64,000 nt of DNA. Origin: an uncultured Chlamydiae bacterium. GTDB taxonomy: Bacteria; Chlamydiota; Chlamydiia; Chlamydiales; JAJFMA01. Position 1 is the stretch's first letter, and every line of letters begins with the position of its first letter. The stretch covers positions 2,848,001 through 2,912,000 of the forward strand of contig CAVQMM010000001.1 of assembly GCA_963713615.1 (NCBI GenBank), written 5' to 3'. Positions 1 through 18,008 of this stretch are shown here, in pieces. Made by a program: the position numbers and the translations under genes. Below the pieces are notes generated by a model that had not been told where the DNA came from, did not search any database, and was given only the letters and a program-made list of their open reading frames with translations.

Positions 1-30
1 TGGGAAGATTGAGGACTACTCGGCAGTATT

Positions 31-402
31 TTGGAAGTGCCGAGCCTGACTACATCGCGCAAATCCAGGAATACGATTTTCTCGATAGACAGATTTCATC
101 TTTTATTACTGATAGAGGGTATTGAAGGGATTAAAAAACCTGAAGCTTGGATGGAAGTAGCCTTAAAAGAAAACTTTTCCACTCAAAATAACAATCTCAA
201 AGAGAATCGACTCTTTACAGAGGACTTTGTGAGAAGAAATAACTGGAAGGATATCAAAATAACTCAATCCTACTGTACTCATTCGCTCTCCAGCAAAGAT
301 TACCCCTTTAAATTGCCTCCAGAAGATTTTCGGAGAATGCTCGTTGACTGCTACAAACAGTACTGCCAAAGCGAGGAAGTGGCTGATGAAAACAGAGATT
401 GA
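31..402 (+). CDS. Hypothetical protein, probably the C-terminal part of a gene starting left of the window (possibly frameshifted)
   Basis: The ORF has a TTG start, and another frame is open from the window edge to ~125. It overlaps the next gene's start, as in an operon. Confidence 0.35.
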   Translation: MEVPSLTTSRKSRNTIFSIDRFHLLLLIEGIEGIKKPEAWMEVALKENFSTQNNNLKENRLFTEDFVRRNNWKDIKITQSYCTHSLSSKDYPFKLPPEDFRRMLVDCYKQYCQSEEVADENRD

Positions 403-868
403 ATCTCCTGAAAATTCAGGAAAAATACAGGCTAAGGGAAAATATAAGAAAGGGTATTCGGGTAATCCAAGAGGAAAACCTAAAGGCGCTCGAAATAAAT
501 CCACTTTGGCAGCAGAGGCCCTTTTGGAAGGTTCTTTAGAAAAAATCTGCAGAAAAGTCGAGGGAGAGGCCTTAAATGGCAATATGCAGGCTGCAAAAAT
601 GATCATAGAGAGATTTTTACCACTGAGAAAAGATAGATGTATCGAAATCGACCTTCCCTCGATAGACACATTCGAGGATGCTCTCAATGCTGTTGGATTC
701 ATTGTCAATGCAGTAGGAAAAGGCAAGATCACCCCTTCTGAAGGAGAAATGCTTGCCAGAATGGTGGAAAGCCACTCGAAGGCTTTGGAAGTTTACCAAT
801 TCGAATCTAGGCTAAAAAACTTAGAAGAAAATCTAAACAATAGGAGTAAAAATGAAACTTGCAAATAG
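386..868 (+). CDS. DUF5681-like protein (phage/satellite-associated, small terminase-like)
   Basis: Motif KGYSGNPRGKPKGARNK followed by a helical region ending in G.ITPSE; GAGG RBS at ~373 before ATG 386. Confidence 0.7.
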   Translation: MKTEIESPENSGKIQAKGKYKKGYSGNPRGKPKGARNKSTLAAEALLEGSLEKICRKVEGEALNGNMQAAKMIIERFLPLRKDRCIEIDLPSIDTFEDALNAVGFIVNAVGKGKITPSEGEMLARMVESHSKALEVYQFESRLKNLEENLNNRSKNETCK

Positions 869-1058
869 AAAACGAGTAGAGGAGCTGGAAAAGGCTTGTA
901 ATTTTGAGAAGGGCAAGCCCTCTTATGCTCTGGTTATATACAGCGCAGAAATGGCAGATAAAATTTCTGCACTCGAGGTAGATGCTGATTTTGTGGTAGC
1001 TTTGCCTGATAATGGAAGAGGCGATCTTGGTGAAGAAATACCCAAAAGGAGGGTATAA
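852..1058 (+). pseudogene. Small hypothetical protein, copy 1 (3' end frameshifted and interrupted by ISAs1; original end at 2323)
   Basis: SYALV.YS.E..D.I..LE.DADFVVALPDNGRGDL.EE.PK is shared with 7675-7852. Removing one A at ~1044 and the IS restores PKGGYKVFFD*, matching PKGGYKVFYG* of copy 2. Confidence 0.7.
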
Positions 1059-1060
1059 GG

Positions 1061-2299
1061 CAGGGAAATTGCATGAAGAATTTAGTTTACGCCAAGCAAC
1101 CCCAATAAGTAGCCACGGTTCCACCCTGCTTTCGAACGGCGATTTTTAATCCCTGCCTTTGTCTTTTTATCTGCCTTTAAAATATTTAGCGTGGCCCGTC
1201 GAAGCACGGAAAAATTTTCCGCCCCATTATCTTTTCTTACTTTGCATCCATCCTCTGCATAGGATACATCTAGCTGCCAGTGCAACTGGTTCTCAATTGT
1301 CCAATGAGAGCGTATCGCATGGGCCATTTTCCTCGCATCGGACGAGAGGCTGGATATGTAAAACCGTGTTTCTGTTGAAGTTACACCCTTAATTGTTCTT
1401 GTACTCCTAACTGCGGCAAGACTCCTTAAACCTGTCCATTCTGTTTTTTGTGGTAGCCACTCAAGATCTTCACATACCCAAACTTCTCGTTTCTCAACTC
1501 GTCCTCGCGACTTTTCTTCGCTCACAAAAAAGTCACAACCACTGGCTTCCGGTAGACCTTCAACCACTTGCTCAAAAAAGTTTTGAGCCTCAGCATGTAG
1601 ATGTCCTTGATTCCCTTTTAGACCTATCACGTAGTCTCCTCCTTGCTCCACGATCTGCTTAACAAGTGGCCTATGACATCCTCCGGCATCCACTGTAATT
1701 GTAGCACCCCTAATATCGAGCATGGCAAGAAGCAAGGGAAAAGCAGTGATTTCATTGGATTTTAGCTCTGTTGCAAGCTGCCCTAGAACAAGTTGATTTT
1801 CCGCTGAAAATGCACTCACGATATGAATGGCTCTTACATCATTTGTCGTATCGGAAGAGTTGCATAAGGTTTTGCCGTCCAAAGCGATGATGCCACCTAT
1901 CGTTTTGGCAATATGCTGAGTCCAGTTAATAAAACACCGCTCAAACGCCTGTGGGTTGACAAAGCGGAAAAAGCGCGAGAAAGTGTCATGCGAAGGGACA
2001 CCATCAGAACACATTTGAAGCTCGTGTAACCATTCAAGATTAGACTCAGACCATAAGCTAACCTCTACCCAATCATCAGCCCCGCAAAGTATAGCGAGGA
2101 TGGCGATCGATACGATCTCGGAGACACTGTAGGCCTGGTTTCTTGCCTTACGAGGATCTGGTAGGATTGAAAACGCGAGCATGATAGAAGTTTCTCTGAC
2201 TGCATGTTGTTGTGACATTATACATCTCCCTGATGAAAAGGAGAAGTAGTCGCAACAATTTGAAAAATAGTCAAATCATTTCTTCATGCAATTTCCCTG
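1061..2299 (-). mobile_element. ISAs1-family insertion sequence, copy 1 (1239 bp)
   Basis: 20-bp perfect TIR CAGGGAAATTGCATGAAGAA; 10-bp TSD GGGTATAAGG at 1051-1060 and 2300-2309. Confidence 0.95.
1082..2218 (-). CDS. ISAs1-family transposase
   Basis: Motifs DPR, PSHDTFSR, IALDGKT, KSNEITA, TVDA, LKGNQ and HWTIENQLHWQLDV. Confidence 0.95.
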   Translation of the reverse strand: MSQQHAVRETSIMLAFSILPDPRKARNQAYSVSEIVSIAILAILCGADDWVEVSLWSESNLEWLHELQMCSDGVPSHDTFSRFFRFVNPQAFERCFINWTQHIAKTIGGIIALDGKTLCNSSDTTNDVRAIHIVSAFSAENQLVLGQLATELKSNEITAFPLLLAMLDIRGATITVDAGGCHRPLVKQIVEQGGDYVIGLKGNQGHLHAEAQNFFEQVVEGLPEASGCDFFVSEEKSRGRVEKREVWVCEDLEWLPQKTEWTGLRSLAAVRSTRTIKGVTSTETRFYISSLSSDARKMAHAIRSHWTIENQLHWQLDVSYAEDGCKVRKDNGAENFSVLRRATLNILKADKKTKAGIKNRRSKAGWNRGYLLGLLGVN

Positions 2300-2369
2300 G
2301 GGTATAAGGTGTTTTTTGATTAAAGATTTATAATTTCCTTCGGTGATAGCAGCTAAATTTTTTTCAAAA

Positions 2370-4016
2370 TTATTGGGCTATATAGGCTTGATTTGGTGAG
2401 TTCCCTCTTTCTGGATACACATATTTTAATAAACCATCTTTGACTAAAGGTGTTAGATACTGCCTGACCAAGTGTTTTTTATCTTTTCTATCGAGAAGCT
2501 CGGCAATTTGCTGAGCCGTGAGGGGGTGCCAACTACAAAGAGCATAGATCATGGACTTAAGCTCTTCTTTTTTAGGATGTTTCTTCAGCTTCTCGAGTTT
2601 TAATTTTAATTCTATTGGGAGACTCTCTTCTTTAGTAATCGCTTCCAACTGGTGTGTTTTCGGCTCAAGCTGGTGTGTTTCTTCTTTTAACTGGTGTGTT
2701 TTCTGCTCAAGCTGGTGTGTTTTGTCTTCTATTGGTGGTGATTTTTCATCTACAAAGGCGATTTTTCTATATGTTTCGGGGTGAATAGGCAGTGTAACCA
2801 AAAAGAAACTATGGTGTTCATCTGTTTTAAATATCGGCGGGGGTGACCCATTAGCTTCCATTGCATTACGGATTTTTGGTACACCTGTACAGCGTCCTTC
2901 CGTTAAATGGAGTTCCTTGAGAAAATCTCCTATTCGTCTGTTTCTGTATGTCCTAACTCGGACTGACCCCTTGTTTAAGTCTTCAATTTTGAGTGGGGGT
3001 AATGGTCCAGGAAATGATAAAATCTCAATCCGGTCGTTATGGATGCTGATTTCAATCGGCTCTCTTTGAGCGTAGTCTTTATGATAAATAGCATTTGCCA
3101 AAACTTCCTCTAAAGCAACATAAGGGTAGTTGTAGAATCGATCGGCTTCCGCGCGATCGGGGCGTTTGCGTACTTCCTCTTTAATCAACATCGACTGAAG
3201 ATACCGCAAGGCTTCTTTCAATTGGATATGGATAGGCCCTTTAAAAATCTTTTCCGAGAATCTATCCCCGATTTCATCATGAAAATCGACAACGTCTATT
3301 TGAGCATAGGGGAAGAATTTTTCAGGATGATTATTGAACATCATTAAGCCAATATTCAATGGTCTTAAAAACTCTTCAGGACCTTGGACAATTTGCATTT
3401 GGCGACAAAGGTGCGTAAAAGGGATCTTATCAACTTCAGTAAGAAGGTCGCTCTTAATTTCGCGAAGAAAATCTTTGATTATCCCAACATTAAGATCCGA
3501 TAATTGAGCCTGATGACAAATGCGGTCGTCAAAAGGTACCTGATTTGCCATTTCGTGAAGTTTTTGAATATCTGCAGGTTGTGCTTTTATCGTTGAGGAA
3601 TTGCGTCTAATAAAATGTGAATATGTGGCGTTTTTTCCAAGTGTTTCAGGGGCTTGATAAGGTCTCGTCTGGCCGCCTGGACACCAAATGACAAGAATCA
3701 TTTTGTCTTGAAAATTGACGGGCGCCACAACAGGGTTATACTGCGGGCGAATCCTATAACCCAATTCCAATATTTCCTTTTGAATTGCATCGATTTTGTT
3801 TGGAGCTAAACCGATAGGAGGGAAAATTGGTTGACCATCTTTTTCTTCGACACCTATTATTAAGTAACCTCCACCCCAATTGTTAATATCATTTGCAAAG
3901 GCAGAAACTGTACGAATGAAGGCTTCGGGATTCCACCCCGCCTTAAATTCAAGGCGTTCCCATTCAACAATCTGTCCTTTAAGTAATTCATCGATATTTA
4001 TGGGAAGAGCAGTCAT
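2370..4016 (-). CDS. AlbA_2 (Schlafen-like) / HATPase_c_4 / C-terminal HTH protein
   Basis: N-terminal E...LEFK...VSAFAN..GGYLIIGV; central ALEEVLANAIYHKDY, YRNRRIGDFLKELHLTEGRCTG; C-terminal winged-HTH-like segment. Confidence 0.85.
   Translation of the reverse strand: MTALPINIDELLKGQIVEWERLEFKAGWNPEAFIRTVSAFANDINNWGGGYLIIGVEEKDGQPIFPPIGLAPNKIDAIQKEILELGYRIRPQYNPVVAPVNFQDKMILVIWCPGGQTRPYQAPETLGKNATYSHFIRRNSSTIKAQPADIQKLHEMANQVPFDDRICHQAQLSDLNVGIIKDFLREIKSDLLTEVDKIPFTHLCRQMQIVQGPEEFLRPLNIGLMMFNNHPEKFFPYAQIDVVDFHDEIGDRFSEKIFKGPIHIQLKEALRYLQSMLIKEEVRKRPDRAEADRFYNYPYVALEEVLANAIYHKDYAQREPIEISIHNDRIEILSFPGPLPPLKIEDLNKGSVRVRTYRNRRIGDFLKELHLTEGRCTGVPKIRNAMEANGSPPPIFKTDEHHSFFLVTLPIHPETYRKIAFVDEKSPPIEDKTHQLEQKTHQLKEETHQLEPKTHQLEAITKEESLPIELKLKLEKLKKHPKKEELKSMIYALCSWHPLTAQQIAELLDRKDKKHLVRQYLTPLVKDGLLKYVYPERGNSPNQAYIAQ
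2641..2724 (-). repeat. 4 x 21-bp tandem repeat encoding (K/E)THQL(E/K)x in the linker
   Basis: CTGGTGTGTTT recurs every 21 bp. Confidence 0.9.
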
Positions 4017-4052
4017 TTCAAAGTCTGTGGTACAAATAAGTAAACATAATTT

Positions 4053-4304
4053 TTAAAGCACACCTATGAGTTGGCCTTTTTCTTTTATATTATTTTGTTT
4101 AAGGCGATCTTTTCTTTTGTAATTCGAGAAAAGCTTCTGCAATTTTTGAATTGCCAAAGGTGAGGGCTTTGCTTTTTGGTTTTCCCAACGATTAACAGTG
4201 GGAAATGAAACGCCGAGCTTGGCAGCAAACTGTTCTTGGGTTAAACCCATTTCAAGTCTGATTTCACGAATTTTTGAGGGAATAATTTTTTCAGAATCTA
4301 GCAT
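4053..4304 (-). CDS. XRE-family HTH transcriptional regulator
   Basis: IREIRLEMGLTQEQFAAKLGVSFPTVNRWENQKAKPS is a typical HTH_3 signature. Confidence 0.9.
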   Translation of the reverse strand: MLDSEKIIPSKIREIRLEMGLTQEQFAAKLGVSFPTVNRWENQKAKPSPLAIQKLQKLFSNYKRKDRLKQNNIKEKGQLIGVL

Positions 4305-4347
4305 GTCGGTACCGTGGATCTTTGACTTGCATTTTAATGCTTTTTAG

Positions 4348-4377
4348 ATATATCATTCCTTATAAATTATGATATAT
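4348..4377. promoter_or_regulatory. Candidate operator for the XRE regulator
   Basis: Perfect inverted repeat ATATATCAT-N12-ATGATATAT, about 45 bp upstream of the XRE start. Confidence 0.4.
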
Positions 4378-4702
4378 TTGCACACAAGAAGAATATGCGA
4401 ATTGCAGGCATGTACGGCGACAGCGATGATGGCACCTCGGCGACACGCAGTTGGCACCTTCCATCACCGCCCGGCGTCAGCGAGTTGGCACCTTCCATCA
4501 CCGACTGACGACAACCTCCTGGCACCTCCTCCATCACCGACCCGCGACACGCGGTTGGCACCTCCCATCACCGCCCGACGACAGTCGGTTGGCACCTAAA
4601 AACAGGCCAGAATCACCCGGGCCCAGATCCTTCTCGTCTGAAGTCCTTCCAGCCCGGTCCATACCCGCAGGGCGAGTATGGACCATCTGTTCTAACTTCT
4701 TC

Positions 4703-5035
4703 TCAGATCACTGGATCGTCTCCGATAGTCTTTCTAGTGCTACCCTCCAGAGCCTCCAAGTCTTCCTCCAATTTTGCATGAAAGGCATAGATCTGTTCCA
4801 GATATTCTGCAACAAGTTCTCTAAAACGTCTACGTAGATCTTCCTCCAAGCCAGCTACTAGGGCCAATAGCTGAAAAATCCCTTCTCGCACCTCTAAAGA
4901 TGGGGCCACATAAGTCCTGTCTCCACTTAGGGCGTTTTCTATTGAGCTATCGGCTCTACGCTCAAGCTCAGCCACCGCATTTCGTAAATCCTCAACCAAA
5001 GCCCTACTGAGAAGTATTTCTGAATGATGTTTCAT
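4703..5035 (-). CDS. Hypothetical acidic helical protein carried inside IS21
   Basis: 110-codon ORF starting 2 nt after the istB stop, inside the TIRs. Confidence 0.5.
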   Translation of the reverse strand: MKHHSEILLSRALVEDLRNAVAELERRADSSIENALSGDRTYVAPSLEVREGIFQLLALVAGLEEDLRRRFRELVAEYLEQIYAFHAKLEEDLEALEGSTRKTIGDDPVI

Positions 5036-5037
5036 GT

Positions 5038-5862
5038 TTACCTCGAATCTTGTATTTCTTGATTCATGCAAGTACTCAATGTTTTCGCCCGATCCTGGTC
5101 GGTCACACTGGCTCTTGCTTTAGCTGACAAGCTGTTCCTGCGATAACTTTCGCCGTTGATCTGGATAATTTGAGCGTCATGTACCAGCCTGTCTATTGCG
5201 GCCACCGCCATAGCTTTATCTTGAAATATGTTGGTCCATTCACTGAATGGCTGATTACATGTTATGATCAGGCTCTTTCGCTCATATCGCTCTGAGATCA
5301 GCTCAAAGAGAACATTTGTTTCCATGAGATCCTTGTTGGCATAGCCAAAATCGTCTAAAATCAAACAATCATATTTATCCAGCTTTGCTAGCGTTGTCGG
5401 TAGCGTCAGGGCCTGTTTTGAGGCTTGAAGCCTTTGAATGAGCTCGGTGGTACGCATGAACAAAACACGGAACTTGTGCTCTAAGAGTCCCGCTCCAATT
5501 GCAGCTGCCAGATGTGTTTTACCAACTCCTGAGGGGCCAAAAATCAGAATGTTTCTGCCCTCGCGTAGCCAGTTCCCACCTGAGGCTAATGTACAAATCA
5601 ACGTCTTATTGAGCGATGTCACTTTGAAGTCGAAGTCTGTAAGTGTTTTACCTAGGGGCAGGCAGGATTCCTTCAGGTGCCTGATCATACGACGATCCGT
5701 TCTTCCTGTTAATTCGTGTTCACACAAGACTTTCAGGCATTTGGCGCTTCCCCACCCTTCAAGGTCCGCTTGATGACTCATTTCTTCCCACAAAGCGGCC
5801 ATTGTTGGCAGGCGAAGCTGCTTGAGTAGTATCGGTAGTACTGCTTCTTCTTTTGTAACCAT
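5038..5862 (-). CDS. istB: IS21 helper ATPase IstB
   Basis: Walker A GPSGVGKTHLA, Walker B LILDDFGY, and AAIDRLVH...GESYR. Confidence 0.95.
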   Translation of the reverse strand: MVTKEEAVLPILLKQLRLPTMAALWEEMSHQADLEGWGSAKCLKVLCEHELTGRTDRRMIRHLKESCLPLGKTLTDFDFKVTSLNKTLICTLASGGNWLREGRNILIFGPSGVGKTHLAAAIGAGLLEHKFRVLFMRTTELIQRLQASKQALTLPTTLAKLDKYDCLILDDFGYANKDLMETNVLFELISERYERKSLIITCNQPFSEWTNIFQDKAMAVAAIDRLVHDAQIIQINGESYRRNSLSAKARASVTDQDRAKTLSTCMNQEIQDSR

Positions 5863-5878
5863 GAATCTTCTCCTAAAT

Positions 5879-7375
5879 TTATAATGTGGCGTGCTTTAAC
5901 AGCTCGTCGTATGAGCCAAGATCGTGTTGTTCAATCTCTACCAGAGGGACAACGTGCTTCGCTTCCTTAAAGTGTTGCTGTAGCTCTTCAAAGCTTGGTA
6001 TGCGTTGCTCGTTTAGTGCCTTTCGAAGCTCGGCTGCAATTTGTTGCTGGTGACCGTCTGCAGCCAGCTTTAAGATCCTCACCATTTCCTTACATGCCAT
6101 ACGCTCATCAAGCCGCGCATCCAGTAACACCCAAGCCTGGCGAAATTCATCGCTGGGAAATAAATCATCTCTAAAGATGTAGTGTCGAAACGCTTGAGGC
6201 TTGCGGACAAGCTCAGGAATGACATGGCGATAGTCGATGTTTCTTGGGCGAGGACCCGTCTTGCTCCAACGTAATCGCGGAAAAGTAATGATATGAGAGG
6301 CTGCATGAAAACACTCTAATCGGTCGTCATGAACGTGTACCGTTAACGTATGACCTATCAAGCGCGAAGGCACTGCATAATATGCCTGTCGTACGGTTAT
6401 GATGCCCGTGGTAGGAACACCGACGTTTTCTATATCGTGACTGCCTACCTTATGTTTTGGGAGAGGCTTTAGGTGCTTTCGTTCTTCAGCTACTTCAGCC
6501 TGACGTCGCGAATTGTCACTTTTAACAATTTCATCGACAAAGTTTCGATACTCTTGCAGTGAGGAAAAGTCTCTAGAACCCCTCAGGCGCAGCTTTTGAT
6601 CGATTTTATTTTTAAGATGTCTGTGCGAACTTTCAATACTGCCATTTTCATGCTTTACTCCTTTATTGTTTCGCGTGGGCTTTACATCATAGTGTGCGCA
6701 CATTTCATTGTACGCGTTTGTAAGGTCCTCTCTTGCTGATTCATTTAGATTTTTATATGCCGCTGAAAGACTATCGGTACGATGGGTTTCAGGTACCCCA
6801 CCTAGCTCCCATAACGCATTTTGAAAACCTGCAGAGAGAGCTACATGGGACTCTCCTCCCAGAATGACAAAGGCATATGCCCAGCCGCTGAATGGAACCC
6901 TGAAATGATACAGCAAATGAGGAAGCGAAGTACCCTCTATTGTTACATGCAGTTCATCGCAGTTGGTAAAGTCAGAAATGCCCTGAAAACCGGGAGGGTG
7001 GTTTTGCCGAAAGATCCGTTCCTTCTCCCTTCCATGGAGTGCTTTCCATTGCCGAACCCTTCTTTGTAGGGTTCTAAGTAGGCTGTCGGGATATTCCTGT
7101 GGATAGCGTTCCTGGAGATCCCGCATTAAGGTAATGGGCGTTAGGAACGGATCTCTTTCCAACAGGGGAACGAACTCGGTCCTCCAGACTTTCGCGAAGG
7201 GGTCTGATGAAGATCCAGATTTGGAGCGATACTCCTTGATATGAGTGCCTTTCTCGAAGCGCTTAGCGCTTCGCGTACTAATACCCGCTTTGGCAGCGGC
7301 AGTGGCCTGCATGCTGCCACCGTTTCTAATTTGCATATACAACCTCAATTGTTCTTTCGTAATTCTATTTGACAT
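5879..7375 (-). CDS. istA: IS21 DDE transposase IstA
   Basis: Motifs LRTLQRRV, PG.QGISDFT, LGGVP..HRTDS, HENGSIES and YAVPSRLIG. Confidence 0.95.
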   Translation of the reverse strand: MSNRITKEQLRLYMQIRNGGSMQATAAAKAGISTRSAKRFEKGTHIKEYRSKSGSSSDPFAKVWRTEFVPLLERDPFLTPITLMRDLQERYPQEYPDSLLRTLQRRVRQWKALHGREKERIFRQNHPPGFQGISDFTNCDELHVTIEGTSLPHLLYHFRVPFSGWAYAFVILGGESHVALSAGFQNALWELGGVPETHRTDSLSAAYKNLNESAREDLTNAYNEMCAHYDVKPTRNNKGVKHENGSIESSHRHLKNKIDQKLRLRGSRDFSSLQEYRNFVDEIVKSDNSRRQAEVAEERKHLKPLPKHKVGSHDIENVGVPTTGIITVRQAYYAVPSRLIGHTLTVHVHDDRLECFHAASHIITFPRLRWSKTGPRPRNIDYRHVIPELVRKPQAFRHYIFRDDLFPSDEFRQAWVLLDARLDERMACKEMVRILKLAADGHQQQIAAELRKALNEQRIPSFEELQQHFKEAKHVVPLVEIEQHDLGSYDELLKHATL

Positions 7376-7674
7376 CCTAACTCTCGCTTAAGTTTGGGGA
7401 CGTCAGCATTCTAAATGCTCTCTTGCAAGCTCCCAAGAAAGGACTGAAAGATTTGAGGGATTGGGCCGTTGATTCTGGCCTGTTTTTAGGTGCCAACCGA
7501 CTGTCGTCGGGCGGTGATGGGAGGTGCCAACCGCGTGTCGCGGGTCGGTGATGGAGGAGGTGCCAGGAGGTTGTCGTCAGTCGGTGATGGAAGGTGCCAA
7601 CTCGCTGACGCCGGGCGGTGATGGAAGGTGCCAACTGCGTGTCGCCGAGGTGCCATCATCACTGTCGCCGTACA

Positions 7675-7852
7675 TTGTAGTTTGGAGGAGAGCAAATCTT
7701 CTTATGCTCTCGTCGTCTACAGCCCAGAAATCCACGACCAAATCGACTCGCTCGAAATAGATGCCGATTTTGTAGTCGCCTTGCCCGATAATGGAAGAGG
7801 CGATCTTATCGAAGAAGTACCCAAAGGAGGCTACAAAGTGTTTTACGGTTAA
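7675..7852 (+). pseudogene. Small hypothetical protein, copy 2, 5'-truncated by IS21
   Basis: Paralogue of 852-1058 beginning immediately after the IS21 end (CSLEESKSSYALVVYS...). Confidence 0.7.
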
Positions 7853-8007
7853 GTTTTTTAAAATCTTTTTTCTCAGTCAGCATGGAATTGAGTATCAGGG
7901 TTGCCGCATGAAAATAGCGCCAAAAATCTAACTTGCGCAGGAAGAAGAAAGTCTCTTCGAAAAAACAGGTGCTTCGAGGTACAATCGAAGGGCTTGAGGT
8001 TTTGAAC

Positions 8008-10395
8008 ATGAACGTATTTAATAGTTCCGTGCGTTTCCGTCCGGTGCGAATTGGCTGGTGCCTGCATCAAGATGACTGGGTAGCCTATCGAGAAACCCTG
8101 GGTCTTAATTTCATTCTTGCAGGCGGGCAGTTCAACCCCTTGATTCCGATAGACGATGAAAATTATGCCCAAGCTTTGATTCGAGCATTTCGAGTCGACA
8201 TCCTCTTATCGATTTCTGAAGATGCCAAAATACGAGCTTTCATCGAGAAATTTCCACACTTAAAACCCCCATCTTTGAATCCAAGATTTTGGGACTCATT
8301 TCAAAGCGGCAAAATTCCACATTTTGTTGACATTTCTCACTCCATCAAAAAGCATTTCGGTCAACTGGACAAAAATAGTCCTGACTATCAATTCCTATGT
8401 TATGATTGGCAACCAGACGATCCTTTAGCTAATGTTTTTCTCGCTACGTACGGCAAATTACCACCACCGTCTCCAAAAGAAATAGATTATGCCGCTCTAC
8501 TCGGTAAGGGAGTCTCTGCAAATTCCCAAACGCTGACACTGCAAGACGCATTTCCTATCATTATGAGAGACCCTTCTACATTCGTTCCACGCTGCTTTTG
8601 CCGTTTAGGAGTAAAACAACACTACCGACATAGCAATCATTGGGAGTGTAACGGCTTTTATGTCGGGCACGCCGATGATTTCCAAGACATGGTCAACTTT
8701 TGGAATCTGCAAGCGACAGATCTTTCATTAGTATTTTACGATCCAACTCATGCAGACCGACTGCAAAAAAGACGGCAAGATTGGTTATCTTTTTTCCCGC
8801 CCCTTGGTAAAGAGACCGTTCCCAAGATTCCGCCACTTGCACTATGGGGGAGAACCCTTGATATTTTGAACGAACCGATTAAATGGGCGACTCCCACTAG
8901 GCTTTGTAAAATAGATATTACTTCTTGGAATGGTTCCAATATCAAAGTGCCTTATATGTACTTCACCGAACATCATGTGATGGGCATTCAATCGGCTAGT
9001 CCTTTTGGAAAACAGACATTTTCGATACAGTCTCCAGCGCATCCATTTGATGATGATGTATTTTTACAGAGCCAGCAGATGGTAATTGCTATTCAGCCAC
9101 AGATTGCCTATTCATCAGATCATGCATCTACCTTGCAGCTCCCCTTCGTGCCTGAGCTTAACGATTACTACGATAGAGCTATCCATGCCGGAGTAGGTCT
9201 TGCCTGCACACGAGTAGAGCCGGACGGGGTTGGATTTATTAAAAACATTCACTACCATGATCTTTCAATTCACCCTGTAAATATAGCCGACCTAATAAGT
9301 CAGTTGTTCGCACTATCTGACGTTAAAGCAACTCTCAGCGATGCTGGACTAACTACACAAAGATTGATCCACCAGATGGGCGGATTACAGCAATGCCGAC
9401 TTTTCAAAATCCCAGGAGTTCGGAAACTGATTAGGCAGCTAGCTCCAACTAAGGCATTTTCTTGGAAAACAGCTGTGGACTATATCCGAGGGGAAGACCA
9501 GCAGACAAAAAAATGTTCTTTCGACAATTACTCCCACGTGTACCTCAACGGAAAGAAACTAACTCCTGATGCCGTCATGGAAACTTTTCTCGAAAGAAAA
9601 CTTTTCTCCGCAGGGCTTCAGCTGTCTTGTCCCAATTGCCCATTCGATTTTTGGGCCTCTAACAATTTGCCTAGCCCTCAAACTTGCGAATACTGTCAAC
9701 ACACTTTCAATATTTTGCCCTATTTGAAAGATCATGGGATATGGCATTTTCGTCCTTCAGGATTATTTGCTACAGGAGGAGATCCAAAGAAAGGAGGAGA
9801 TCAAAAAGGAGCTATTCCGACGATACTCACTCTTCAGCAACTGGAACACGCATTGGAGTGGGGAAAAATGCCATACTGTGCCTCAATCAATTTCCGCAGA
9901 ACGGGGGTAAAAAAGTTTGCCTGTGAATCTGATTTTGTTGTTGTCCTTCCAGAACCTAATGCCGAAGGCAAAATAGAAATTGTCTTGGCTGAGTGTAAAG
10001 CAGAAGGCGGAGAAATTACCGCCGAAGACGTTGAAAAATTAAGCTTTCTAGCCGACGCTCTCCCCAAAGAGCAATTTCGTATCTACATCCTTTTTTCCAA
10101 GCTCACTAGATTTTCCCCTGAAGAACTCGACAGGATTGCTTTGATTAATACCAATAATATAAGAGCAATTATCTTCTCTACTCCCGACCTTGAAACCTTA
10201 CGTCCCTATGAAACACTGTTACAAAAAAACAAGAGCATGAGATTCGCGGGAAAGCTAAAAGACATGGCCGAAATCACTCACTCTCTGATTTTATCGGATC
10301 GCCAATGGGGCTATCCTGAACAAAAGGAGAAGGACAATGCCTTGACATTGCCCCCTTTATTACCTCAATCTCAGTTAGGAGCCACAACCTCATAA
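8008..10395 (+). CDS. Large uncharacterised protein with Zn ribbon and C-terminal PD-(D/E)xK-like nuclease motif
   Basis: Long ORF with RBS GAGGT before ATG 8008; CPNC...CEYC; ESDFVV...EIVLAECK near the C-terminus. Confidence 0.65.
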   Translation: MNVFNSSVRFRPVRIGWCLHQDDWVAYRETLGLNFILAGGQFNPLIPIDDENYAQALIRAFRVDILLSISEDAKIRAFIEKFPHLKPPSLNPRFWDSFQSGKIPHFVDISHSIKKHFGQLDKNSPDYQFLCYDWQPDDPLANVFLATYGKLPPPSPKEIDYAALLGKGVSANSQTLTLQDAFPIIMRDPSTFVPRCFCRLGVKQHYRHSNHWECNGFYVGHADDFQDMVNFWNLQATDLSLVFYDPTHADRLQKRRQDWLSFFPPLGKETVPKIPPLALWGRTLDILNEPIKWATPTRLCKIDITSWNGSNIKVPYMYFTEHHVMGIQSASPFGKQTFSIQSPAHPFDDDVFLQSQQMVIAIQPQIAYSSDHASTLQLPFVPELNDYYDRAIHAGVGLACTRVEPDGVGFIKNIHYHDLSIHPVNIADLISQLFALSDVKATLSDAGLTTQRLIHQMGGLQQCRLFKIPGVRKLIRQLAPTKAFSWKTAVDYIRGEDQQTKKCSFDNYSHVYLNGKKLTPDAVMETFLERKLFSAGLQLSCPNCPFDFWASNNLPSPQTCEYCQHTFNILPYLKDHGIWHFRPSGLFATGGDPKKGGDQKGAIPTILTLQQLEHALEWGKMPYCASINFRRTGVKKFACESDFVVVLPEPNAEGKIEIVLAECKAEGGEITAEDVEKLSFLADALPKEQFRIYILFSKLTRFSPEELDRIALINTNNIRAIIFSTPDLETLRPYETLLQKNKSMRFAGKLKDMAEITHSLILSDRQWGYPEQKEKDNALTLPPLLPQSQLGATTS

Positions 10396-10412
10396 CGAGG
10401 CACAAGAGCAAC

Positions 10413-12668
10413 TTATGCTTTCGATTTCTGAAAGAATAGCGCCTGTTTTTCAAGATAATTATCTATTTTATCGTTGATCAAAAAGGCTGCTCTGTCGAAC
10501 TCTAACTGGAGTTCCTTGCTCATTCTGCCAGAAGACAACTCGACTAGGAGATTAGATAAAATAATGATGCGTAAATCATTTCGAGACAGTTTCCTATCGG
10601 ATTCCCAAAAACGCTCTATTTGAGAATCGGTTCTCTCTGAAGCTGCCATAACCGCCTGTTGCTGAGAAAGTCTAGAGCGAGAGTCCTGCGAAGCCTTACG
10701 ACATACGAGAATGATGTCCAAATCAATGGGGTCTTTCGCTTGTTGCTTAGGCACAGCTACTGACATCTCAGATTTAACTGGCTGTGCGGAGACAAAATTA
10801 AATCCAGCGGAAGCAACTGCATGGGAAACAGCTGACCATCCTTCCTCTTTTGAATGGTGGTATGTAAAAACTAGCATCCCTGTATCCTTTAAAACACGGT
10901 GACACTCGGAAAATACAGCAGCCAACTTTTCGGAAAATTTCTGTGAATCAGCATCTTGGACTTCGCTAGGATGGCGAGTAGTATTAGAAGCCGCTGCCAT
11001 ATCACCTAGTAGTGGGTGTTGCCATGCATAAAAGAAATCGGCTAATTCGGAATAGTGTACGTTGTCAAAAAAAGGTGGATCGGTGACAACTAAGTCCACG
11101 GATTGATCGTGAAGATCTGTTTTTGAAGAATCTCCACAAGAAAGGTATATGGAATATGGTCGTAATTCATCCGATCTATTAACAAAATTTAAATCACGAC
11201 CAATTGGCTTGTTGCATTTAAAATTCTTTGTCCCAACTTTTTTGTTTTCACCTACCTCAATTTCGAATGGATTTTCACGATATTCTAAGCAGCGCAATAA
11301 TCTTGATTTGAATAAGCTGGAAAATGCCCCTGAACTTTTTGAAGTGCCCCAAACATTTGCTTCTATTGGATGTCTCTCCGGTTTAAGAATATGATGCGAA
11401 AACATATGACGGACTGCACCAGTGCCTTCACCCTTGAAAGAACAGAACATATTGTTGAATTCCAAAGTGCCAGAAAACAGAATGGAAAAGATTAGCCTTA
11501 AGTTTTGGTTCTCAATTTTCTGTATTTCTTTTCCGAGCCATGAAAGTGCTAAAAGTTGGCGGGAATTGAAGAATTGCTCCCACTGTGTGTAGCAATAATT
11601 CATTGCCTGAGTAGTATTTTTACCCGGTTTTAGCTCAGTTTTGTTAATAAGAGGGGGCTCATGTCTAAGAAGATCGTTTACTTGTGAAAATTTGAGCAAA
11701 TCTTCGCTTGTTATTTTACGGTATTCCTTTTCATTTTCAGGGGTTAGTACCATTTTAGCGTACATACGGTGTTCAGGTGGCTTTCCGCTTTTCTTTACAA
11801 TTGGTGCAATTGCAAATTGACAATGACAGTTTGAGCACTTTGCTTTAGCTTTTTCTGCTGGACCAATTTGAGGATCAAATGCGAAAGAACATGCCGGACA
11901 TTGCTCAGAATTTGAGTCGAATCTGGCAGAAAAGACTTCTCCACATTTTGGGCAAAGACATTTTGACTGCGGGAAACGAGAAGAATAAGCATGTTTGGAA
12001 AAAATGTAGTTATTGAAAAGATCAACAGGTGCTTTACAATCAGGACAATTAACGTATTTTACCCAAAAATAATAGAGCACTTCGCCGCCATCCGAGAGTT
12101 GGTAAAGGGATCTAATTTTTTTTCCAACGTTCTCTTCTAAAATATTGAATGTACTTTCCACATCTTCGGTATTTACGTTAGAAAATGCTGCTCGAACTCC
12201 GTTGTAAGCGACAGGGTTAATATCTCTTCCTATAACCGTACACCCAAGTTTAATTGCTTCTCCTATCGTAGTTCCGCTGCCCATGAAAGGATCAAAAACA
12301 ACCAACCCACCTAAATCTGTTTCGGAATAAAAATGATGAAGGACGGAGGTTTTATTGGGGAGAGAAGAACCAAGAATAATTGAACGAAAGACACTTCCTA
12401 AACGTTGTGCCCACCACTTGTGAAGATGGTAGATAGGTCTGTAAACTTCTTTACGCCAACTTTCTATCTCAGCTATTTCGCTAATTTCAGCAAACGGAAA
12501 ATCATTCTCAATGGATGACAATATAGTCTCCCATTGATTATCAGGTGAACAAATTCCTGGTAATTTAAGATCTGTCATCTCAAATCCTGAGAAATAGGCA
12601 ACAGATTGTTCTGAGCTAACAATAGATTTTGGGCAATTTACTAGATGAGGTGGAATCAATGGCATCAT
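10413..12668 (-). CDS. Amino (N6A/N4C) DNA methyltransferase with Zn ribbons (COG1743/DUF1156-like)
   Basis: HLHKWWAQR, motif I FDPFMGSGTT, four CxxC pairs and motif IV TDPPFFDN. Confidence 0.88.
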   Translation of the reverse strand: MMPLIPPHLVNCPKSIVSSEQSVAYFSGFEMTDLKLPGICSPDNQWETILSSIENDFPFAEISEIAEIESWRKEVYRPIYHLHKWWAQRLGSVFRSIILGSSLPNKTSVLHHFYSETDLGGLVVFDPFMGSGTTIGEAIKLGCTVIGRDINPVAYNGVRAAFSNVNTEDVESTFNILEENVGKKIRSLYQLSDGGEVLYYFWVKYVNCPDCKAPVDLFNNYIFSKHAYSSRFPQSKCLCPKCGEVFSARFDSNSEQCPACSFAFDPQIGPAEKAKAKCSNCHCQFAIAPIVKKSGKPPEHRMYAKMVLTPENEKEYRKITSEDLLKFSQVNDLLRHEPPLINKTELKPGKNTTQAMNYCYTQWEQFFNSRQLLALSWLGKEIQKIENQNLRLIFSILFSGTLEFNNMFCSFKGEGTGAVRHMFSHHILKPERHPIEANVWGTSKSSGAFSSLFKSRLLRCLEYRENPFEIEVGENKKVGTKNFKCNKPIGRDLNFVNRSDELRPYSIYLSCGDSSKTDLHDQSVDLVVTDPPFFDNVHYSELADFFYAWQHPLLGDMAAASNTTRHPSEVQDADSQKFSEKLAAVFSECHRVLKDTGMLVFTYHHSKEEGWSAVSHAVASAGFNFVSAQPVKSEMSVAVPKQQAKDPIDLDIILVCRKASQDSRSRLSQQQAVMAASERTDSQIERFWESDRKLSRNDLRIIILSNLLVELSSGRMSKELQLEFDRAAFLINDKIDNYLEKQALFFQKSKA

Positions 12669-13459
12669 TCCTCTTCTTCTTCTGGAAAAATTTCGTTTAT
12701 TTGACCTTTCACAATAGCTACTTCTTTATCAGAATCTGAATTAATTCTGTAAGCTGAAAAGGCATGTTTTTCTCCAGCATTTTGATTTGGAATAGTTTTA
12801 GGTGCGATTGTATTTTGAATAAGATCGAACTCGTAACCTATGACTATACTTGCCGATTCAAAACGGATGAGATCCCCAACTTTCTTGAAATTACTTGGGG
12901 GTATCATTGTAGACGGAACAATAAGAGTCCTTGTTCCTGTAAGCCCTTGAGCGATCGCAAACGGTGTAGGAGCTACGTACATCTTCCTATCTCGAATCAT
13001 AATGTCTCCGTAACTGCCAAAACCTTTTACGCTTCTGTTTTTATGGATGTATTCATGATCCGCATTAAGAAAGTCTCCATGACAAATCACAAGATCGATG
13101 ACAGGATATTCATTGCCAGACCCCTCCGCACTAGGATACCGACCGAATACGTAATAGATATCTCGGCCGTTATGAAATCCCGTTGGAACTTGACTGTTAC
13201 AATCATAAGTCGACTCGCGCCCAGGCCATGCAAGTCCTTTTACTTCATACCCTTCAGTAGTTTCAACTAATGAAAAATCAGGGTAGGAATTACGTCCAGG
13301 TTTGTCGTAATGGGTGCCCATAGCGTCAAGTCGAGCTTGAAACCAATGTTGAAAGTGAAACTCTTTATCTGTTTTGCTAACTCGAGAAATAAGGGCTCCC
13401 TGAAGGATAGCCTCAACACACTTGGAAAATATTTCGAATATCTTTGTTTGTCTCATCAA
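12665..13459 (-). CDS. Putative type II restriction endonuclease
   Basis: YPDF...GYEVKG PD-(D/E)xK motif; ATGA overlap with the methyltransferase gene. Confidence 0.7.
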   Translation of the reverse strand: MMRQTKIFEIFSKCVEAILQGALISRVSKTDKEFHFQHWFQARLDAMGTHYDKPGRNSYPDFSLVETTEGYEVKGLAWPGRESTYDCNSQVPTGFHNGRDIYYVFGRYPSAEGSGNEYPVIDLVICHGDFLNADHEYIHKNRSVKGFGSYGDIMIRDRKMYVAPTPFAIAQGLTGTRTLIVPSTMIPPSNFKKVGDLIRFESASIVIGYEFDLIQNTIAPKTIPNQNAGEKHAFSAYRINSDSDKEVAIVKGQINEIFPEEEEE

Positions 13460-13799
13460 TAACGCCTATTAAAATCCAAAATTTTCTTATCTCCCGCTTC
13501 GAATAGCTAAAGCTCTTTCTTTTGATTAAAAGAACCCTTCATGCTTTTTGCCAGCGGTTATTAAAATAAAGAGGCAAGCATGGGTCGTTGGAAGAATGGT
13601 ACCTGAAAATACGAGAAAAATACAGATGAAAGGTCGTTCAAAAAAAGGAAATCAGGAAATTTTGCGGGGAAATTAAAAGACACATCGCAACCAGTCTAGC
13701 TTTCTGACTAAGCGGCTGTTCATGGATGAAATCCAGGAGATTTGCGGGACGATTATTGCAGGGCGACGTTAAAGATTCCTGCTACGAAGATAACTCAAG

Positions 13800-14213
13800 C
13801 TACGTCTTCTGGGAAGTTGTGAGTTCTTCGCTTCGCTTTTGAAGTAAGTCCTTCAAAAGTTTGCTGCCGCTTTTGACTCTAGTAGCAATCAGTGCTGCAT
13901 GGGATGTTCTGGCTATGCTGGCTTCTGCAATTAGTTGTTTGAGTGAATTTATAAGATCCTCGTCAAGAAGAGTACTTTCTTCAGAATACACCAAGCGTTC
14001 CAGTGCATCAGTTTTGCAGGGACAAATAGGTCCGCCTATATATTTTGCATTGAGATCGAGTTCGTTTATGCAATGTCGAATTTTCTCAATGCAGTTTTTA
14101 CGCAGATTCACCGGCCCTTTTTTAGCCTCTTTTTGACGAGCCCAAAACTCCTCGATCCGATTAAGGACAAGACCAGCGACTATAAAAAGTAGGAACTGCC
14201 ATAAGTAATCCAT
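13800..14213 (-). CDS. Hypothetical protein with N-terminal transmembrane helix
   Basis: ORF with hydrophobic N-terminus YLWQFLLFIVAGLVL. Confidence 0.55.
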   Translation of the reverse strand: MDYLWQFLLFIVAGLVLNRIEEFWARQKEAKKGPVNLRKNCIEKIRHCINELDLNAKYIGGPICPCKTDALERLVYSEESTLLDEDLINSLKQLIAEASIARTSHAALIATRVKSGSKLLKDLLQKRSEELTTSQKT

Positions 14214-14243
14214 TTTAATGAGATGACACAGCGTTGTACGTTT

Positions 14244-14777
14244 TCATTTGTTTTTTTGTTTAATACAAGAGCGGCATGAATCTACTGCTCTTCCGAAAAA
14301 ATGCTTGCTGATAGATTGTTGGATTTCTTCAAGAAGCGGAAAGTCTTGGGAGATGTGCTTATCGTTATTCCAGAGCATCGTTATCCGAACCGCGGTTTGA
14401 GTTATATGGAAGGCGGGGTTCTCGTTGCTCGGGTCCATTTTGCGCATGATTGCCAAACTTTCGGTGAGCAAGGGCGTCAAATTGAGAGGACGGAAAAGCA
14501 GGCCAGTTTGGCAGACGTTTAGATCTTCAAAAAGGATTTTTGCTTGTTTAAGATGATCATAATACTGTTGTTCGCTTGTGCGGTTTTTCATGTGTTTTGC
14601 GAGGTCTTCTAGAACCCTTTTTAATTCATTCAGCTTGTTAAGGCATTTTTCTCTCGCCTCGCCATCTTTTGAGAGTGGTAGGGTGAATAAGCCGAGGACC
14701 CAGCCGAACAAGACTAGTGAAACGTCTTTTATCAAGTCGGACTCCGTGTTCAATGCCATTTGTGCATTACCTGCCAC
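14244..14777 (-). CDS. Hypothetical protein with N-terminal transmembrane helix (start may be 14757)
   Basis: Hydrophobic segment VSLVLFGWVLGLFTLPL followed by a helical region. Confidence 0.55.
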   Translation of the reverse strand: MAGNAQMALNTESDLIKDVSLVLFGWVLGLFTLPLSKDGEAREKCLNKLNELKRVLEDLAKHMKNRTSEQQYYDHLKQAKILFEDLNVCQTGLLFRPLNLTPLLTESLAIMRKMDPSNENPAFHITQTAVRITMLWNNDKHISQDFPLLEEIQQSISKHFFGRAVDSCRSCIKQKNK

Positions 14778-14853
14778 ATACCTGGCACATTTGAGATTTT
14801 AGAGGATTGATTGGCAAGATTGTCTTGATCGTAACTCATTGATAATAAAAGAA

Positions 14854-14928
14854 TCTGGGTGAGAGGATTTGAACCTCCGACCTCTTGCACCCCATGCAAG
14901 TGCGCTAGCCAAGCTGCGCTACACCCAG
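14854..14928 (-). tRNA. tRNA-Pro(GGG), CCA not encoded
   Basis: Reverse complement reads CTGGGTG TAGCGCAGCTTGGCTAGCGCA CTTGC-ATGGGGT-GCAAG AGGTC GGAGGTTCAAATCCTCT CACCCAG A, a full cloverleaf. Confidence 0.97.
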
Positions 14929-14937
14929 ACAAGAAAA

Positions 14938-15340: not shown

Positions 15341-15675
15341 AGCCCATCCAAGAGCGACATGCGCAAGTGACCGTACTTTCAAGTAACTCAAAAGGTTAGC
15401 TGGCGAATTTCCTATGTGGCGCAGTCATTCCATGCATATTGTTGCACACATCTTTTTCTTGACTCACAATCGTATCTCGGCGCGCAGCGCTTTGGAGTGC
15501 GTGTCGCTCGCGACCGCTTTGGATTTGGGCGAGCCTATTGAATCGCGCACCGTTCTTTGGAGGCTTAAACCCCCACAGTTACCCCTAGAGCGAAAGGTTA
15601 CGTTTCTTGCAATGCCAACTTCGCCCAAATCCAAAGCGGTCGCGAGGTAAGCGTCAATTGAGGCCATCTGGCGAT

Positions 15676-17884: not shown

Positions 17885-18008
17885 GGAGAAAACTTAGAAC
17901 CTCGCGGAATTACGAAAAAGGTGGCTTCAATTGACGCTTACGTCGCGAGCGACACGCACTCCAAAGCGCTTTGCGCCGAGCCACGATTGTGAGCGTTTTA
18001 ATGATAAA

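Follow-up and report, generated by a model that had tools for sequence, protein, structure and literature searches.

The window analysed here, a 64,000-nucleotide stretch of the genome of an uncultured Chlamydiae bacterium (GenBank assembly GCA_963713615.1, contig CAVQMM010000001.1, positions 2,848,001 to 2,912,000), carries in its first 15 kb a small mobile element, integrated at tRNA-Pro in two stacked and broken copies. Positions 89-14901 are the tails of two related elements, here called module 1 and module 2, and the block ends at the 3' end of their integration target, the tRNA-Pro(GGG) gene (14853-14929, minus strand), as an earlier note on this DNA had read it. We consider it probable that the block is what is left, in immobilised form, of two stacked elements; the family to which they belong has sizes of 10-17 kb, is widespread in environmental Chlamydiota and likely consists of phage satellites with exchangeable cargo. 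Sequence comparison supports the structure and the spread of these elements well; packaging by a phage and a defensive role of the cargo in the window are inferred.

Each module is marked by a copy of a small gene, at 852-1058 and 7675-7852, of which the 3.97-Mb genome holds no third copy. It belongs to a family of 70-74-residue proteins with an LPDNG motif. The two copies are 77% identical in DNA where they align (896-1046 against 7675-7825) and 70% identical in protein across 50 residues, which bears out the diverged duplication that the earlier note had recognised. In module 1, the gene follows the last third of a replication initiator gene, rep (89-402, plus strand), and an intact gene for a DUF5681 protein (386-868, plus strand; PF18932, E 7e-12), the latter also as anticipated. 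The rep remnant is 67% identical over 97-396 to residues 205-304 of the 305-residue protein of an intact relative (L011), and the intact protein matches DnaD-like/O-like initiators in PHROG; the nearest relatives of the DUF5681 and small proteins bear chlamydial names, which places the host in Chlamydiota. Behind copy 1, and convergent on it, lies the module 1 cargo, a Schlafen gene with AlbA_2, HATPase_c_4 and winged helix-turn-helix (HTH) domains (2370-4016, minus strand) and an XRE regulator (4053-4304, minus strand), and Pfam matches confirm the two genes that had been proposed there. Module 2 begins with the 3' 59 codons of copy 2 alone (7675-7852, plus strand) and continues with genes for a 795-residue predicted nuclease (8008-10395, plus strand), a 751-residue DNA methyltransferase with a 264-residue likely restriction endonuclease (10413-13459, minus strand), a frameshifted 5' piece left over from a third DUF5681 gene (13599-13760, plus strand; profile match, independent E 1.6e-5) and two small open reading frames (ORFs) of 137 and 177 codons with N-terminal hydrophobic stretches and no family match (13800-14777, minus strand). 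It closes with a paired 10-bp direct repeat (14770-14790, plus strand) and the attachment site (att) core, formed by the 3' part of tRNA-Pro(GGG), which starts here at the anticodon stem-loop (14847-14901, plus strand).

Each module is matched in another genome by a twin of its own, flanked by att. The twin of module 1, L118, is a complete element with integrase, orf, AlpA and a 55-bp att, and is 97.5% identical to window positions 89-1060 and 85.8% identical to 2300-4379, the Schlafen-XRE cargo; the same cargo stands behind the small gene in L017, at 93.5% identity. The twin of module 2, in genome G103 from another family, is 92.8% identical to positions 10284-14934, has a 55-bp att 100 bases ahead of the matching stretch, and conserves both the two small ORFs and the third DUF5681 remnant, so that the latter was carried within module 2. 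As the elements share 93-97% identity with their twins, while the recA genes of the hosts share only 71-74% (74.2% for L118 and 70.8% for G103, against 78.9% for a genome of the same genus), they have evidently moved between distant hosts and host families. Stacking has a parallel as well: in genome G144, a beheaded module, its cargo, a 53-bp att of 100% identity, a complete module and tRNA-Pro follow one another, the distal module likewise lacking an integrase, and a second tandem stack, without a visible tRNA, is found in L094. Together with the twins, the att-separated stack upholds the tandem accretion of two related elements that the earlier note had put forward. Because the att copy contains the whole anticodon stem-loop, an incoming element could insert at both ends of a stack, and the order in which the two modules arrived could not be fixed. 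We also observed in G103 (L206-L207) an integrase-less, att-flanked unit of 4.7 kb, consisting of the methyltransferase pair, the DUF5681 remnant and the two ORFs, whose att-to-10284 deletion joint recurs in one contig of the unrelated run X4; it is possibly a satellite of the satellite.

How the intact elements are built emerges from a set of 61 loci, collected as the flanks of about 45 profile matches to the small gene plus 41 further loci and freed of identical copies. A single-query search had found the small gene in five of 60 relatives; a seven-sequence profile found it in 48 of 400 Chlamydiota genomes, with none in the 29 genomes of family f36 and none in the other four genomes of the host's own family. 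DUF5681 stands directly upstream of the small gene in 52 of the 61 copies, and a tRNA in an orientation compatible with integration lies within the locus in 36, of which 15 have tRNA-Pro(GGG) and the others are spread over eight different tRNAs. Ten further copies, not at tRNA-Pro but at other tRNAs, have an integrase downstream on the opposite strand. Nine elements are complete from att to tRNA-Pro (L011, L086, L087, L089, L090, L118, L121, L149 and the proximal one of G144). They span 9.9-16.7 kb, with the integrase of L149 split, and their core genes all point in one direction in the order att, tyrosine integrase, an ORF of about 200 residues, AlpA-like gene, rep or primase-helicase, DUF5681 and small gene, followed by cargo, arm repeats and tRNA-Pro. 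The att is a 48-57-bp duplication of the 3' part of tRNA-Pro; all nine retain it together with the integrase, while in the window the tRNA-side att end alone remains. The AlpA-like gene, lost from the window, encodes an HTH protein of 65-78 residues that matches PHROG 66 (excisionase/regulator) with E 9e-14 to 6e-12 in L118 and L011, and the replication module varies between the DnaD/O-like rep of L011 and the primase-helicases of L014, L016, L086 and L090. A paired 10-bp repeat, identified by eye 60-85 bases from the tRNA, is present at 17 of 17 element-bearing tRNA-Pro ends as well as in the window, recurs inside the far att of elements and is missing at all three empty sites from the same genus (three genomes with no element at tRNA-Pro(GGG)); it is likely the arm site of the integrase. 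The tRNA-Pro integrases form one long-branch clade in a tree of sequences from chlamydial bins only. No structural or lysis genes were found among the core and cargo representatives scanned, and no relaxase in the core genes of L011, L014, L016 and L118 with PHROGs and NCBIfam, where a form with only an origin of transfer was not searched for.

Whereas one family occupies the position upstream of the small gene, the first gene downstream falls into 33 clusters in the 49 copies with downstream cargo, a set that excludes the ten copies whose integrase lies downstream, a tandem duplicate and an empty copy. This tabulation of downstream genes supports the earlier idea that the site behind the small gene is a cargo hotspot. 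Cargo families were assigned through 99 plus 38 scanned representatives of 211 clusters. Among the 18 copies whose cargo ends at tRNA-Pro, three of them with the tRNA seen on an overlapping locus, ten carry type I/II restriction-modification (R-M), AbiE, PRTase-CE or caspase-TIR genes and five only Schlafen. The Schlafen gene of the window matches PF04326 (E 1e-14), PF13749 (E 6e-15) and PF21247 (E 2e-6), so that PF04326 is fused to a sensor-type domain, the feature by which the family is recognised. Bacterial Schlafen fusions have been shown to defend against phages, and the prokaryotic defence proteins described likewise combine PF04326, an ATPase-like domain and a winged helix; the module 1 protein, judged from its sequence, probably belongs to the HisKinase-HTH class, which that account counts among the commonest (PMC13056530). 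The linker of the gene contains four 21-bp repeats (2642-2746), with a leftover repeat also in L093.

The 795-residue protein of module 2 has no match in Pfam, PADLOC, PHROG or NCBIfam, and none of the 120 listed among its 301 homologues carries a Pfam domain. Because 23 aligned homologues share an invariant E640-x-D642...E662-x-K664 motif and four cysteines, the description 'nuclease-like' given to it earlier appears reasonable, and we predict a nuclease that has a zinc ribbon and, at its C-terminus, a PD-(D/E)xK-like motif, and that represents an unnamed, widespread family. In the neighbouring pair, which had been read as an R-M system, the methyltransferase is borne out by N6_N4_Mtase and PADLOC matches; the restriction partner is not, as the 264-residue protein has no match in the same four databases, and its likely identity as a restriction enzyme is suggested by its position and a PD-(x10)-EVK motif. 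Other cargo recorded on the way includes a TIR (ThsB-like) and caspase-like gene pair beside tRNA-Pro (L118:15660-17080), resistance-like genes for aminoglycoside adenylyltransferase-like proteins and a flavin-dependent (FAD) monooxygenase (L121:14895-17017, L148:12883-14700, L016:5828-7147) and copper-resistance clusters in copies at tRNA-Tyr. An operon of an Hsp70-like protein (824 residues), a 620-640-residue protein and an IetA-like AAA ATPase, found as cargo in two genomes of different families (L011:4163-9629, L090:3830-9233), is a candidate for an undescribed defence system.

Whether the elements are packaged by phages turns largely on DUF5681, for which we put a role as small terminase (TerS) at close to even odds. 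In its favour, a DUF5681-like gene lies directly before the large terminase gene (terL) in three of the three viral contigs found, and in Leptospira phage LE3 it directly precedes terL and overlaps it. In Salmonella phage STGO-35-1, whose genome is opened at terL, it is ORF 88 at 46.9-47.4 kb (PMC8954984). A sister family of chlamydial elements, described below, has terS and terL in the corresponding position, behind the primase or helicase. TerS proteins have a flexible basic N-terminus and long helices, and the structural model of DUF5681 (predicted local distance difference test score, pLDDT, 86) is all-helical with just these features. The small protein is modelled as helix-strand-helix-strand-strand. 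It has no fold match (best Z 3.5; best E 0.27), no viral contig match and no PHROG or Pfam family, and its Atlas neighbours are annotated only as 'hypothetical' (0.91, recognition below threshold). The idea that its gene is a split-off TerS C-terminus was rejected, in a weak test, when 7,994 longer candidates gave two matches, neither an annotated DUF5681 fusion.

Several observations weigh against satellites with defensive cargo. DUF5681 has no sequence, profile or fold match to solved or named TerS proteins: its fold search returned generic helical matches, the best with Z 7.4 over the last two helices, the viral fold search reached E 0.009 at best, to unnamed proteins, and no similarity to the TerS of a sister family described below was seen (probability 2%). 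Where it matches phage proteins, it does so mainly in the N-terminal motif, its gene does not adjoin terL in Felixounavirus and Nankokuvirus genomes, and the protein was detected among the virion proteins of one phage (PMC8954984). No core gene scanned matches a PHROG head (capsid) family, though the ORF of about 200 residues and the small protein have no assignment, a helper phage has been shown for no carrier, and the cassette of primase, DUF5681 and small gene also occurs on a plasmid, Waddlia pWc (L199:9293-9945), and so not in integrated form only. On the side of the cargo, three of the 18 copies at tRNA-Pro lack defence-type genes, metal-resistance genes occur as cargo at other tRNA sites, and 'defence-rich' is a description and not a statistic, the counts having no background-rate control. 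In the window itself, finally, no att survives between the two modules.

These observations leave room for a different vehicle, a reading we hold to be rather unlikely but the strongest of the alternatives: integrating mini-replicons, cargo-tycheposon-like or derived from plasmids, that are moved by F-type conjugation, vesicles or DNA uptake within amoebae, with DUF5681 and the small protein serving replication, segregation or regulation. It would fit a 15.6-kb Waddlia plasmid that joins the cassette to a helicase, a primase, ParA and integrases, the missing TerS fold match, and the sharing of the integrase-less 4.7-kb unit between different families. An F-type type IV secretion system and gene flow between plasmid and chromosome are documented in Chlamydiae (PMC7846284, PMC5010888), and most of the tycheposons described have no packaging gene (10.1101/2020.12.28.424599). 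Set against this are the core genes scanned, which include no relaxase, the conjugation genes of this genome, which amount to a sub-threshold TraC fragment, the terS slot that DUF5681-like genes occupy in several phages, and the very core of phage-inducible chromosomal islands (PICIs), which consists of AlpA, a primase and a gene in the terS slot (10.1101/2022.09.14.508007).

Further elements came to light around this question. A sister family of tRNA-integrated elements, represented at tRNA-Leu(TAA) in the same genome (L184:827-12906) and in L188, L190, L191 and L192, has an integrase and a primase/helicase, behind which lie terS-like and terL genes. Neither a portal nor a capsid gene was seen in the 20-kb loci, and in L191 terL is followed by a type I R-M-like operon; the family is possibly a second kind of satellite with a terminase of its own. 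Two more integrase-primase-helicase elements of the genome, at tRNA-Thr(CGT) (L186:635-6767) and tRNA-Met (L187:752-7579), have integrases outside the tRNA-Pro clade. A 35-kb contig in a chlamydial bin (L193, G177:C102) is tailed-phage-like, with RecT, an O-like initiator, terL, portal and many small ORFs, and is a candidate for the helper type, subject to possible contamination of the bin. A terL profile matched 62 of 400 genomes, a tally that we do not use as a count of phages because the profile cross-matches a helicase and most of the strong matches examined are the capsid-less sister elements.

The damage to the block explains why it stays in place. At the left, an RHS/YD-repeat fragment (its end at 1-88, plus strand), a 349-bp internal piece that begins 259 bp left of the window and shares 96% identity with five other RHS loci of the genome, with both flanks different, has replaced the head of module 1; the 20 kb to its left are ordinary host genes. 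Within module 1, an ISAs1-family insertion sequence (IS) (1061-2299, minus strand; 10-bp target duplication; at least seven near-identical full copies in the genome) splits small gene copy 1 into a 5' part (852-1060, plus strand) and its last codons (2300-2323), so that the intact form would run to 2323; relative to its relatives, the assembled copy also has one extra base near 1045. Between the modules, an IS21-family element (4411-7674, minus strand; istA, istB, orf122) abuts small gene copy 2; Pfam matches support both IS assignments. An IS without a target duplication is the signature of an IS-linked deletion. Because this copy, unlike the other six in the genome, lacks the duplication, it marks a deletion, which took the junction of the modules and the head of module 2, in agreement with the removal of most of the second element by IS21 that had been surmised from the sequence. 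No part of the genome supplies the missing integrase, AlpA, two thirds of rep or distal att repeat: none of its nine tyrosine-recombinase matches lies at the tRNA-Pro block, the 3' part of tRNA-Pro is single-copy with no att duplication, and when the head of the nearest intact twin is compared with the genome, only the tRNA and the final third of rep (97-396) match. The block is thus unable to excise by itself, and neither module is mobile alone. An integrase and a repeat of the tRNA-Pro 3' end, whose lack left of the window the earlier note would have held against an integrative element, were accordingly not found in this genome, a local loss because module 1 is beheaded too; the proof comes from the intact twins elsewhere.

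The same gap between the modules bears on a reading that we consider improbable, namely a single composite element that captured a second cassette of small gene and cargo by recombination at the small gene and was later trimmed by IS21. The lack of an att between the modules would suit it, the decayed DUF5681 piece in module 2 shows that internal capture does occur, and small gene copy 1 is nearer to L017 in its 3' end than in its 5' part, possibly owing to a crossover; yet each module has its own att-flanked twin in other genomes, att-separated stacks exist, and the IS21 copy without target duplication sits exactly where an att and a head are expected. That the assembly is a chimera joined at the RHS, ISAs1 and IS21 repeats is very improbable: repeats do lie at both module boundaries, and of the 13 public runs listed as sharing sequence words with the stretch none has half of the words, none is an RNA run and their contigs do not bridge the junctions of the window, but the ISAs1 target duplication is clean with one gene continuing on both sides, the host gene order (recA-ispA-glmU-like ... 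tRNA-Pro) agrees with that of relatives, natural stacks of like kind exist and the contig measures 3.9 Mb.

Some features of the surroundings were noted besides. The IS21 element has perfect terminal inverted repeats of 205 bp (4411-4615 and 7470-7674) with internal 34-bp repeats, and its extra ORF of 122 codons lies 3' of istB. Just left of the window, a 577-codon ORF without family match (L001:17903-19636) is in part 79.6% identical to DNA directly after the small gene in L085, and the island may reach about 2 kb further left, to a trmA-like gene. To the right of the block, a palindromic 50-62-bp repeat (15463-15514, 15621-15669 and 17919-18003) with well over 100 copies genome-wide stands beside an IS66 transposase; its copies often form inverted pairs about 125 bp apart, resembling repetitive extragenic palindromes and bacterial interspersed mosaic elements (REP/BIME-like).

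Returning to two stacked satellites, the cycle of an intact member may be pictured as follows. The integrase would cross over within the anticodon stem-loop, AlpA would trigger excision and replication upon arrival of a helper, and DUF5681, acting as small terminase, would direct the DNA of the element to capsids made by a tailed helper phage; the small protein would act as the partner of DUF5681 or as an interference factor. The cargo of the window, that is the Schlafen nuclease, the 795-residue nuclease and the R-M pair, would guard the host from phages as well as from other DNA that enters it, and we propose that it has outlasted the mobility genes because it does so. Tentatively, and with somewhat less than even confidence, this may extend to a phylum-wide system of tailed-phage satellites in Chlamydiota, comprising the DUF5681/small-gene family of about one in eight genomes and the sister terS-terL family, that use many tRNAs and shuttle anti-phage systems between host families; DUF5681 would then be a new family of small terminases, the 73-residue protein a new factor for packaging or interference, and infection by tailed helpers regular.

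To our knowledge, the known chlamydial phages are small single-stranded DNA viruses, and Chlamydiae live sheltered inside host cells. A common family of PICI-like elements that pass between host families and whose cargo includes R-M, AbiE, Schlafen, caspase-TIR and PRTase genes speaks for real phage pressure and an active route of transfer in the phylum, and transfer in phage particles, if true, implies tailed phages that attack intracellular chlamydiae. The window itself offers only a decayed example. The fixed address behind the small gene is a place to mine for new defence systems, such as the unnamed family of the 795-residue nuclease, a testable function can be offered for the very large DUF5681 family (12,121 clusters), and environmental chlamydiae could gain a genetic tool in the integrase/att pair of tRNA-Pro.

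Among known systems, the closest are the Gram-negative PICIs of the EcCICFT073 and PmCI172 type (Fillol-Salom 2018, PMC6092414; SatelliteFinder, 10.1101/2022.09.14.508007), which likewise have a site-specific integrase, AlpA, a primase or replication gene, a gene in the terS slot followed by accessory genes, and no structural or lysis genes in about 10-17 kb; they are given there as about 12-15 kb in size, with a capsid morphogenesis gene that is optional and confined to type A. If DUF5681 is a small terminase, four of the five components described for PICIs have a counterpart in the chlamydial core. In contrast to PICIs, the chlamydial elements have no recognised TerS or capsid-morphogenesis gene, in whose stead they carry DUF5681 and an apparently Chlamydiota-restricted small protein, their integrase is placed at the opposite end from the intact tRNA, and their hosts form an obligate intracellular lineage for which no tailed helper is shown; the word 'chlamydia' is absent from the accessible text of both papers. 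The tycheposons of Prochlorococcus, for which stacking at tRNAs with decay has been described (10.1101/2020.12.28.424599), resemble the chlamydial elements in layout; membership among them requires their integrase lineage. According to the accessible text, PICI-like tycheposons carry no extra cargo, unlike the elements found here, and tycheposon cargo serves nutrient uptake, whereas that of the chlamydial elements is of defence, toxin-antitoxin and resistance type.

Within the phylum, the islands PnaK_GI2, PnaD_GI1 and PnaD_GI4 of Protochlamydia naegleriophila are also linked to tRNAs (tRNA-Thr, -Leu and -Met) and bear integrases, in 5-37 kb and in one case with a terminase large subunit, but the main text reports them as single islands and not as a family, and describes no tRNA-Pro island, core order or hotspot (PMC5010888). 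The 100-kb, conjugative Pam100G (PMC548262) is unlike the small tRNA-Pro elements. The Waddlia chondrophila plasmid pWc (NC_014226; PMC2878342) has the same order of helicase-primase, DUF5681 and small gene, yet is described as an autonomous multicopy plasmid with ParA, MazF and a Pgp7/8-type integrase and is not integrated at a tRNA; phage genes on chlamydial plasmids have been reported (PMC7846284). We found no description of the element family in the literature searched, which covers few subscription papers, in keeping with the earlier statement that no such element was described in Chlamydiae. What the window preserves is thus a real, if decayed, example of a widespread element family in Chlamydiota with a PICI- and tycheposon-like layout that combines an unusual module of DUF5681 and small gene with a hotspot for cargo.

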